Positions 10,740-12,853 of a stretch of 64,000 nucleotides of DNA are shown piece after piece. The notes below the pieces were generated by a model. That model was not told where the DNA came from. It ran no database searches and saw only the letters and a program-made list of their open reading frames with translations. Numbering within the stretch: the stretch's first letter is position 1; each line of letters begins with the position of its first letter. The translations under genes were made by a program, and so were the position numbers. Where the stretch lies: sequence record PQ480333.1; one strand, 5' to 3'. Source of the stretch: Escherichia phage NRG-P0074.

Positions 10740-11282
10740 ATGAGAAAAGCACTACTCGCTGGTCTATTTGCTCTTTCATTATCAGCACATAGCTCCGAGC
10801 ATACTTTTAGTAATGTCCAACTCGATAACTTGAATTATGCTTATCAGTTTGGGGAACAGTTTTCTAAGGACGGAAAATTTAAAACGCATGAAAATATGCA
10901 TAAGAAAGGACTTGGATACATAATGGCCGCAATACTATGGCAGGAATCATCTGCCGGTATTAATCTTAAAGATAAGAAAGGTCACCATGCGTATGGAATG
11001 TTCCAAAATTATCTACCAACAATGAGGGCAAGAATTAACCAGCTTGGTTATAATATGACTGATGCCCAAATTAAGAAAATGCTATCTAAGCGGTCTAATT
11101 CAACCAGATGGGCTTATATCGAATTTTCTTATTGGTTAAATATACATAACGGGGATATAAGAAAAGCTATATCCTCATATAATGCGGGATGGAAGACAAG
11201 TGCTGGAAGTAAATATGCTTCTGAAGTCCTAGAAAAGGCTAATTACCTTAAATCAAATAAACTACTGGAAATAAAAGAATGA
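10740..11282 (+). CDS. secreted soluble lytic transglycosylase (SLT-domain) protein
   Basis: Signal peptide MRKALLAGLFALSLSA; SLT motifs WQESS, GMFQ, SYNAGW. Confidence 0.6.
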   Translation: MRKALLAGLFALSLSAHSSEHTFSNVQLDNLNYAYQFGEQFSKDGKFKTHENMHKKGLGYIMAAILWQESSAGINLKDKKGHHAYGMFQNYLPTMRARINQLGYNMTDAQIKKMLSKRSNSTRWAYIEFSYWLNIHNGDIRKAISSYNAGWKTSAGSKYASEVLEKANYLKSNKLLEIKE

Positions 11283-11626
11283 CCAAAATGTTGGCTTTAA
11301 TAGTTGGCTTGGTTTCATTTAACGCTCTTGCTAATACAACATATACTGATGTAACGGAGTATACAAACAGAACGGCGTCTGATTATTGTGGTAAAAGTCA
11401 AGAGTGTAAAGTAGATTTTTCACAAAAATTGTTATATGCGTATAAAGACGGAGAAAAAGATGGGGCGTCTAGTAGGTTCAAGGCGTCTACCTTAATTAAA
11501 AGATACTATAAAAAATGGCAAATATTAGAATGCTCTGTGGCGGAACCTAAAGATAAGGCAGCATGCAATTCTATGGTGGACCGTCTAGTTGACTCTTATA
11601 CTAGAGGACTTGCAGCAAGTGATTAA
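11279..11626 (+). CDS. hypothetical secreted protein
   Basis: 115 aa with N-terminal signal peptide MTKMLALIVGLVSFNALA. Confidence 0.5.
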   Translation: MTKMLALIVGLVSFNALANTTYTDVTEYTNRTASDYCGKSQECKVDFSQKLLYAYKDGEKDGASSRFKASTLIKRYYKKWQILECSVAEPKDKAACNSMVDRLVDSYTRGLAASD

Positions 11627-12083
11627 AAACTATATCAAGGGCGATATTGTCGCCCTGTTTTCTAAAGGTAATAATATTGCTCATGGGTGTAATTGTTTTC
11701 ATACAATGGGCGCTGGTGTGGCAGGACAATTAGCAAAGGCTTATCCAAAAATTCTGGAAGCCGATAAACTTCAAACCGAATTCGGAGACAAGTCTAAACT
11801 CGGGACTTATTCGGTTTATGAAAAATATTTTAAGACCCATAAAGCTTATTGCTTTAATCTTTATACACAGTTTGAGCCGGGACCTAATTTTGAGTACTCT
11901 GCTTTAATGAATTGTATAATAGAATTAAATGAATTCGGAAAGAATAAGATAATAAAGCCTGTAATTTATATGCCTAGAATTGGTGCAGGTATTGGTGGTG
12001 GAAACTGGGATATCATCGAAGAGATTTTAGATACGTATTCCACTAAACTAGAAATTGTGATTGTTGATTGGGAACCTAAATGA
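11619..12083 (+). CDS. macro-domain-like protein
   Basis: GNNIAHGCNCFHTMGAGVAGQLA and PRIGAGIGGGNW resemble macrodomain Gly-rich loops; GTG start with GAGGA 10 nt upstream (alternative TTG at 11589). Confidence 0.5.
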   Translation: MIKNYIKGDIVALFSKGNNIAHGCNCFHTMGAGVAGQLAKAYPKILEADKLQTEFGDKSKLGTYSVYEKYFKTHKAYCFNLYTQFEPGPNFEYSALMNCIIELNEFGKNKIIKPVIYMPRIGAGIGGGNWDIIEEILDTYSTKLEIVIVDWEPK

Positions 12084-12271: not shown

Positions 12272-12853
12272 ATGGCTAGTTTAATTTTTACCTATGCCGC
12301 TATGAACGCTGGTAAGTCTGCTTCATTACTTACTGCCGCACATAACTATAAAGAACGTGGCATGGGTGTATTAGTTCTTAAACCGGCTATTGATACTCGC
12401 GATTCAAAAGGTGAAATAGTCTCTCGTATTGGTATTCGTCAGGACGCCAATATAATTACAAAAGACATGGATATCTTTGAATTCTATAAATGGGCTGCAG
12501 CACAAAAGGATATTCACTGCGTATTTGTTGACGAAGCTCAGTTCTTAACTACTGAAAAGGTGTATCAACTTAGTCGTATTGTTGACGTATACAATGTGCC
12601 GGTAATGGCATATGGACTACGAACAGATTTTAAAGGTAATCTATTTGAAGGTTCTCAAGCATTAATGGCTATTGCCGATAAGCTTGTTGAACTTAAAGGT
12701 GTCTGTCATTGTGGTAAAAAGGCCACAATGGTAGCTAGAGTCACGGAAGACGGACTTCCAATTACAGATGGCAGTCAAATTGAAATTGGTGATACCGATA
12801 GATATGTGTCATTATGCCGGAAGCATTGGAACGATTTGACAGGGTTGTTATAA
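12272..12853 (+). CDS. tk: thymidine kinase
   Basis: P-loop MNAGKSASLL, VDEAQF, Zn-ribbon CHCGKKA...CRKH; typical TK1-type thymidine kinase. Confidence 0.95.
   Translation: MASLIFTYAAMNAGKSASLLTAAHNYKERGMGVLVLKPAIDTRDSKGEIVSRIGIRQDANIITKDMDIFEFYKWAAAQKDIHCVFVDEAQFLTTEKVYQLSRIVDVYNVPVMAYGLRTDFKGNLFEGSQALMAIADKLVELKGVCHCGKKATMVARVTEDGLPITDGSQIEIGDTDRYVSLCRKHWNDLTGLL

Follow-up and report, generated by a model that had tools for sequence, protein, structure and literature searches.

The window analysed here, a stretch of 64,000 nucleotides from Escherichia phage NRG-P0074 (PQ480333.1), belongs to a T4-like Mosigvirus. The 4 kb flanking the gene under study share 98.4-99.4% identity with many Escherichia and Shigella phages, and APCEc01, one of these near-identical phages, is classified as a Mosigvirus (Tevenvirinae). 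The genes are ordered regB, vs.1, vs, the macrodomain gene, one small ORF and tk (Table 1). The arrangement regB-vs.1-vs-tk.4-...-tk is common to the window, T4 and RB32, and the macrodomain gene sits in a co-directional block between regB and tk. An earlier note on this DNA had placed an ORF at 11619-12083. It is present with 154 codons and a stop, and the coordinates are right. Its GTG start is homologous in position to the ATG with which tk.4 begins in T4 and RB32, and a GAGGA upstream is also kept in both of those phages ahead of their ATG. The end of vs overlaps the start of the gene by 8 nt. A mechanical list of ORFs held a longer frame from a TTG at 11589, which has no homolog support; this start was rejected because of the overlap of the frame with vs and because the ATG of T4 aligns with the GTG. 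A sigma-70 promoter scan around the gene returned 12 sites against 14.7 expected from shuffled sequence, and since the count shows no excess over shuffled sequence, the scan says nothing on transcription.

Between the macrodomain gene and tk there is a single small tk.3-like ORF. T4 carries tk.3, tk.2 and tk.1 at this place, and APCEc01, which is 98.7% identical, has three small ORFs. The window is shorter than APCEc01 by about 415 bp between the macrodomain gene and tk.

Table 1. Position, strand and basis of the features at the macrodomain locus and of further ORFs of the window named in the text.
Feature	Position	Strand	Basis and remarks
vs.1	10740-11282	+	
vs (valyl-tRNA synthetase modifier)	11279-11626	+	PHROG 1256, E 5e-35; same order in T4, RB32 and APCEc01
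Shine-Dalgarno-like AGAGGA	11603-11608	+	Read from sequence; 10 nt upstream of the GTG
tk.4/adfM ortholog	11619-12083	+	154-aa single-domain macrodomain; GTG start; stop codon counted in the coordinates
Terminator-like hairpin, AGGGCGATATTGTCGCCCT, then GTTTTCT	11638-11656 (within 11632-11663)	+	Pattern scan; in codons 7-13 of the macrodomain gene
Loop 1, HGCNCFHTMGAGVAG, residues 22-36	11682-11726	+	hmmalign to the family HMM; contains N25
NLYTQ motif, residues 80-84	11856-11870	+	Profile alignment to TARG1 and BT1257; hmmalign
Loop 2, PRIGAGIGGGNW, residues 119-130, diphosphate-binding Gly-rich loop	11973-12008	+	Profile alignment and hmmalign
Small tk.3-like ORF, 60 aa	12080-12271	+	PHROG 653
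tk (thymidine kinase), downstream synteny marker	12272-12853	+	PHROG 592, E 1.4e-87; synteny with T4
T4 gp61.2 homolog	55333-55980	+	66% identity; Arg in place of T4 His165
Mod-family ORF	60393-60974	+	PHROG 832 'RNA polymerase ADP-ribosylase', E 5e-38
Mod-family ORF	61032-61640	+	PHROG 832 'RNA polymerase ADP-ribosylase', E 1e-37

The protein is a true macrodomain, small and stand-alone, and falls in the ALC1/TARG1-like class. The Pfam Macro family (PF01661) matches with 28.9 bits (E 1.2e-6), above its gathering cutoff of 22, over profile positions 2-117 of 118, and PHROG 335 matches at E 2e-66. Sequence searches of the PDB find macrodomains, at a best E of 1.7e-10 with the single sequence and of 8e-18 with a profile of the 59-sequence family. 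The significant hits are all macrodomains among the matches listed, namely BT1257, Poa1p, SCO6735, DarG and TARG1. An AlphaFold2 model on the 59-sequence family alignment (mean pLDDT 94.9, pTM 0.90) displays the predicted three-layer alpha/beta/alpha macro fold. Foldseek returned 162 PDB matches to it at E<=0.001, headed by TARG1, Poa1p, BT1257, DarG and SCO6735 with probability 1.00 and TM-scores of 0.7-0.8 and followed by viral macrodomains; the matches listed are natural macrodomains, except for a group of engineered 'designed serine hydrolase' entries. The earlier note had proposed a macro-domain-like protein and had named an HMM search as a check and a predicted structure lacking the macro fold as a refutation. 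The Pfam score above its cutoff, the PDB sequence matches, the model, which does show the fold, and the Foldseek comparison all agree with that proposal and put the resemblance to macrodomains well beyond chance.

Relatives of the macrodomain are found in 2,799 of 50,697 phage records, and their hosts include Escherichia, Klebsiella, Salmonella, Pseudomonas, Vibrio, Acinetobacter and Aeromonas. Judging from genome sizes and names, part of the 2,799 records appear not to be T4-like, and a fold search of BFVD gives the same wide spread across phages. In near-identical phages and relatives, databases label the gene 'macro domain-containing protein', 'Poa1p-like family protein' or 'phosphatase'. 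The T4 tk.4 record reads 'phosphatase; contains A1pp phosphatase motif', PHROG 335 is labelled 'phosphatase', and JGI labels relatives as O-acetyl-ADP-ribose deacetylase.

For the comparison of active sites, TARG1, BT1257, SCO6735 and two DarG macrodomains, with sequences from the PDB search outputs, were aligned to the family HMM. A MAFFT alignment of the phage family with the PDB macrodomains was discarded, as it mis-registered BT1257 and SCO6735 around the NxxxQ motif. HMMER profile alignments were used instead and agree with the published equivalences (PMC9411070). As a check of TARG1 numbering, the two catalytic residues published for it were located in the alignment and are indeed K and D. 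Conservation was scored over 59 homologs with identity down to 39%.

Both Gly-rich motifs quoted in the earlier note are exact: GCNCFHTMGAGVAG corresponds to residues 23-36 and RIGAGIGGGNW to residues 120-130. In loop 1, N25 is the equivalent of DarG N22, SCO6735 N27 and PhiKZ AdfM N23 (hmmalign; BLASTP for PhiKZ gp104), and H22, N25, G31 and G33 are kept in at least 90% of the 59 homologs. Q84 of the NLYTQ motif (codon CAG, 11868-11870) is aligned with the catalytic lysines K84 of TARG1 and K80 of DarG and with Gln85, an essential residue of SCO6735; N80, Y82, T83 and Q84 are invariant in the family. In loop 2, G122 and G124 correspond to SCO6735 G126 and G128, G126 stands in place of TARG1 D125, and P119, I121, G122, G124 and W130 are invariant in the same 59 homologs. 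The window protein is predicted to bind ADP-ribose via its two conserved Gly-rich loops. Since Q84 and N25 align with SCO6735 Q85 and N27, it is assigned an SCO6735-type site, with Gln at the catalytic-Lys position and the positioning Asn, and its chemistry is probably of the SCO6735 type rather than the DarG type.

SCO6735 hydrolyses thymidine-linked ADP-ribose on DNA and protects cells from DarT (PMC9411070). Its Q85A variant is inactive on dT-ADPr DNA, N27S is nearly inactive and G128E loses activity, and a water-mediated mechanism without a catalytic base has been proposed (PMC9411070). The DNA-positioning lysines K34 and K89 of SCO6735 are absent from the window protein, where hmmalign puts A32 at K34 and G88 in the K89 region; its DNA binding must therefore differ from that of SCO6735 or be weaker.

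SCO6735 (Streptomyces coelicolor, PDB 5E3B) and BT1257 (Bacteroides, PDB 2FG1/2AFC) are, like the window protein, stand-alone ALC1/TARG1-like proteins of about 150 aa that carry the conserved Asn, a Gln where the catalytic Lys would be and a loop 2 of the form PRIGxGxxGGxW. They differ in sequence, at about 21-27% identity to it, and SCO6735 is a cellular, DNA-damage-induced protein that is not phage-borne. The macrodomain of DarG from DarTG2 (PDB 5M31/5M3E, 5M3I, 7OMU) shares the fold (TM about 0.75), the conserved Asn and the presumed substrate, DarT2-modified thymidine, whereas it has a C-terminal DarT-binding domain, which the window protein does not have, and the catalytic Lys80 in place of Gln84. 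The sole PADLOC and NCBIfam matches are to the macrodomain part of DarG models (E 1.8e-9 and 6.8e-8). The PADLOC model scores 35.5 bits, and NCBIfam NF048014 scores 32.1 bits over model positions 4-148 of 338, below its curated cutoff of 250. No darT toxin gene adjoins the macrodomain gene, whose neighbours are vs and the tk.3-like ORF, then tk. Human TARG1/OARD1 (PDB 4J5R) and yeast Poa1p (PDB 6LFR) are the best structural matches. TARG1 also strips thymidine-linked ADP-ribose from DNA, but through a catalytic dyad, K84/D125, where the window protein has Q84/G126. Poa1p differs as a small-molecule phosphatase.

A phage macrodomain with a described function is AdfM (gp104) of PhiKZ, which removes T-ADPr from DNA in vitro, requires its Asn for de-ADP-ribosylation and protects chimalliviruses from DarTG2 (PMC13309987). 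It resembles the window protein as a phage-encoded, stand-alone anti-DarTG2 macrodomain, with the same name and the same orphan-antitoxin logic. It differs in belonging to another branch of the class and in being clearly DarG-like, with 133-138 bits to the DarG models against 32-35 for the window protein, and in retaining Lys78. By BLASTP, only 23 residues of the window protein align to it. T4-type and PhiKZ AdfM look as if each had been recruited separately from one macrodomain class, and the Gln of the T4 type in place of the Lys suggests that phages have recruited anti-DarT2 macrodomains at least twice.

The window protein is 86% identical to T4 Tk.4 (NP_049723) over 153 aa, its whole length, and 22 of the 153 aligned residues differ, including G127 of the diphosphate loop (K in T4). 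The two share the place between vs and the tk cluster, the homologous start site, the loops, N25 and Q84. They differ in the start codon, ATG in T4 and GTG here, and in the small ORFs before tk, three in T4 and one here. Taken by identity and gene order, the window gene is the syntenic ortholog of T4 tk.4 (adfM, for anti-DarT factor macrodomain). In HIDEN-SEQ, a T4 transposon library was grown on DarTG2-expressing E. coli and tk.4 was the single significant gene; a clean knockout of tk.4 rendered T4 more sensitive to DarTG2, and the authors gave the gene the name adfM (bioRxiv 10.1101/2025.11.20.689424). In their words it 'seems likely' that ADP-ribose is removed from DNA enzymatically (bioRxiv 10.1101/2025.11.20.689424). 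In independent work, T4 without adfA and adfN was still DarTG2-resistant, which predicted a further factor (PMC11825919). No biochemical data on Tk.4/AdfM of T4 or on the window allele turned up in the searchable literature.

We conclude that the gene is the Mosigvirus tk.4/adfM ortholog and that, as an orphan antitoxin, it probably removes from the thymidines of single-stranded phage DNA the ADP-ribose that DarT2 installs. At 86% identity, we infer that the window allele does the same job as T4 tk.4, and it would by analogy be required on DarTG2 hosts; the genetics come from a preprint and concern T4. The protein is expected to act by hydrolysis and not by binding DarT2. The suggestion of the earlier note that a phage macrodomain could reverse ADP-ribosylation by a host defence fits these published genetics of the T4 ortholog, which is needed against DarTG2.

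In the proposed mechanism, infection of a DarTG2 host releases DarT2, which ADP-ribosylates thymidines in single-stranded phage DNA and blocks replication. The macrodomain would hold the ADP-ribose through its two Gly-rich loops. Q84, kept in place by N25, would orient the distal ribose so that water can bring about the cleavage, with no catalytic Lys. The thymine-ribose bond would be hydrolysed and unmodified DNA restored. The macrodomain would in this way be an orphan, phage-borne stand-in for the DarG antitoxin.

The database labels raise a different reading. The 'phosphatase' labels of T4 tk.4 and PHROG 335 and the JGI deacetylase label would fit a small-molecule enzyme that removes metabolites derived from NAD during infection, acting either as a Poa1p-like ADP-ribose-1''-phosphate phosphatase or as an O-acetyl-ADP-ribose deacetylase; Poa1p also gives the highest TM-scores (0.80), and its HxCNC loop matches. 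However, the labels have been transferred by homology and do not come from assays, the T4 phenotype is specific to DarTG2, and Gln stands at the TARG1/DarG Lys position as in the DNA-active SCO6735. We regard a small-molecule function as very unlikely.

Protection from DarT2 might also be mainly non-catalytic, with the protein blocking DarT2 or shielding ADP-ribosylated sites. SCO6735 Q85A still inhibits DarT by interaction (PMC9411070), AdfA and AdfB bind their toxin (PMC11825919; PMC11481870), and the absence of the DNA-positioning lysines of SCO6735 points the same way. Against this, the 154-aa window protein covers positions 4-148 of the 329- and 338-position DarG models and has no DarG C-terminal DarT-binding domain. 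Moreover, the catalytic residues of SCO6735 (N, Q and two loop glycines) are the family's most conserved columns, which is expected under selection for enzyme activity, and de-ADP-ribosylation by PhiKZ AdfM depends on its Asn (PMC13309987). An anti-DarT2 factor of this kind is judged unlikely.

A further alternative is a broader eraser of ADP-ribose on nucleic acids, with DarTG2 as one target among others and with its main targets being other toxins or defences that use phosphate ends of RNA or DNA or other base linkages. TARG1-class enzymes act on several nucleic-acid linkages (PMC11833690), and family members occur in phages with many different hosts, in some of which selection may come from something other than DarTG2. 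Among characterised Gln-type enzymes the closest is SCO6735, which was however inactive in assays with 5'-phosphate- and 2'-OH-linked ADP-ribose (PMC11833690), and a broad range of targets appears improbable to us. The discussion of that paper contradicts its own assays on SCO6735 and phosphate-end ADP-ribose (PMC11833690).

Returning to removal of ADP-ribose from thymidine, a more far-reaching version may be put forward. T4-type AdfM would be a second, independently recruited phage anti-DarT2 macrodomain, with a lysine-free Gln chemistry so far described only for SCO6735 and perhaps with wider substrates. Such substrates might be DNA or RNA to which defences still undescribed attach ADP-ribose at other bases or at ends, or the products of the phage's own ADP-ribosyltransferases. 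Taken as a whole this version is rather unlikely. A wider substrate range, if true, could explain the upkeep of the family in thousands of phages of many hosts.

The window's own transferases suggested yet another role. The earlier note had described ADP-ribosyltransferases of ModA/ModB type at 60393-61640, and both ORFs there do belong to the Mod family. Their annotation in phages of 99% identity is the same, and the R, S-x-S/T and E-x-E motifs are visible. Compared with T4 ModA/ModB, the Mod proteins of the window reach only 30-38% identity, and for both of them ModB gives a better score than ModA. The conserved genes neighbouring the mod genes are much closer to T4 than the Mod proteins are. 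At 91-100% identity the mod cassette is present in a subset of phages (AV115, mar005P1, mobillu, ST2 and ST0), and it looks like a swapped or fast-evolving cassette.

From the presence of two Mod-family transferases and a macrodomain in the same genome, the earlier note had argued that the macrodomain might act on the phage's own modifications. It would then erase the ADP-ribose, or the ModB-attached RNA, that Alt, ModA and ModB put on host proteins, which would make the phage's ADP-ribosylation reversible or put right off-target marks; SCO6735 and TARG1 do act on some protein substrates too. The linkage chemistry stands against this. Macrodomain hydrolases have ester-, phosphate- or thymidine-linked ADP-ribose as substrates, the cleavage of Arg-ADP-ribose is the job of ARH/DraG-type enzymes, and no macrodomain is known to cleave it. 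The T4 transferases are of the arginine-modifying cholera-toxin type, and ModA modifies arginine, at Arg265 of the RNA polymerase alpha subunit (PMC8120803). The distributions disagree as well, since Mod relatives occur in 1,078 phage records, with the ten most frequent organism names all enterobacterial, against 2,799 records and wider hosts for the macrodomain. The macrodomain gene lies about 49 kb from the mod genes. The mod genes have diverged, at 30-38% identity to T4, while the macrodomain has stayed at 86%, and so the two do not co-evolve. The sole reported phenotype of T4 tk.4 is DarTG2-specific (bioRxiv 10.1101/2025.11.20.689424). On the record distributions and the linkage chemistry known from the literature, a partnership with ModA/ModB was rejected as the main function, and erasure of the phage's own marks is highly improbable. 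In the interpretation of the earlier note, the macro fold and the reversal of a host defence hold, and the functional link to ModA/ModB is not supported.

The finding is correct and not new: public records carry the macrodomain annotation, and a preprint reports what the T4 ortholog does. Identification as AdfM corrects the 'phosphatase' label of the databases, which conveys little about the gene. The gene also illustrates how T-even-type phages layer counter-defences against ADP-ribosylation of DNA, with AdfA and AdfN directed against DarTG1 and AdfM against DarTG2. Beyond the literature we found, T4-type AdfM has Gln where DarG, TARG1 and PhiKZ AdfM have the catalytic Lys, and it is therefore grouped mechanistically with SCO6735. 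This Gln-for-Lys exchange and the distinction from PhiKZ AdfM are a modest refinement and not a new system.

A second possible anti-DarT gene of the window is the homolog of T4 gp61.2 (Table 1), a protein taken to be AdfA. If gp61.2 is AdfA, the window carries two anti-DarT genes, and its allele of this one is RB69-like. An RB69-like allele of AdfA has been reported to be unable to neutralise DarT1 (PMC11825919).

Within the 5' part of the macrodomain gene lies a terminator-like hairpin. The window, T4, teqhad and fPS-65 share without change a run of 26 nt that includes it, although the teqhad protein is only 59% identical overall. The hairpin is annotated as a 'terminator' in Yersinia phage fPS-65, and folding gives a z-score of only -1.97. 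Possible roles are attenuation between vs and tk.4 or some other RNA signal, or the patch may have been conserved by recombination. In a RIL-seq preprint, the tk.4 transcript of T2 is reported to pair with host sRNAs, ArcZ among them (bioRxiv 10.64898/2026.06.19.733364), and this contact might be linked to the conserved hairpin. The same preprint calls tk.4 a 'putative thymidine kinase' (bioRxiv 10.64898/2026.06.19.733364), which is a mislabel.

The two genes upstream, vs.1 and vs, encode proteins with signal-peptide-like hydrophobic N-termini (MRKALLAGLFALSLSAHS and MTKMLALIVGLVSFNALA, respectively). The N-terminus of T4 Vs is similar to that of the window Vs. Such an N-terminus is odd for Vs, a named modifier of the cytoplasmic valyl-tRNA synthetase. 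In minimal medium, vs was the most depleted T4 gene (HIDEN-SEQ preprint, bioRxiv 10.1101/2025.11.20.689424).
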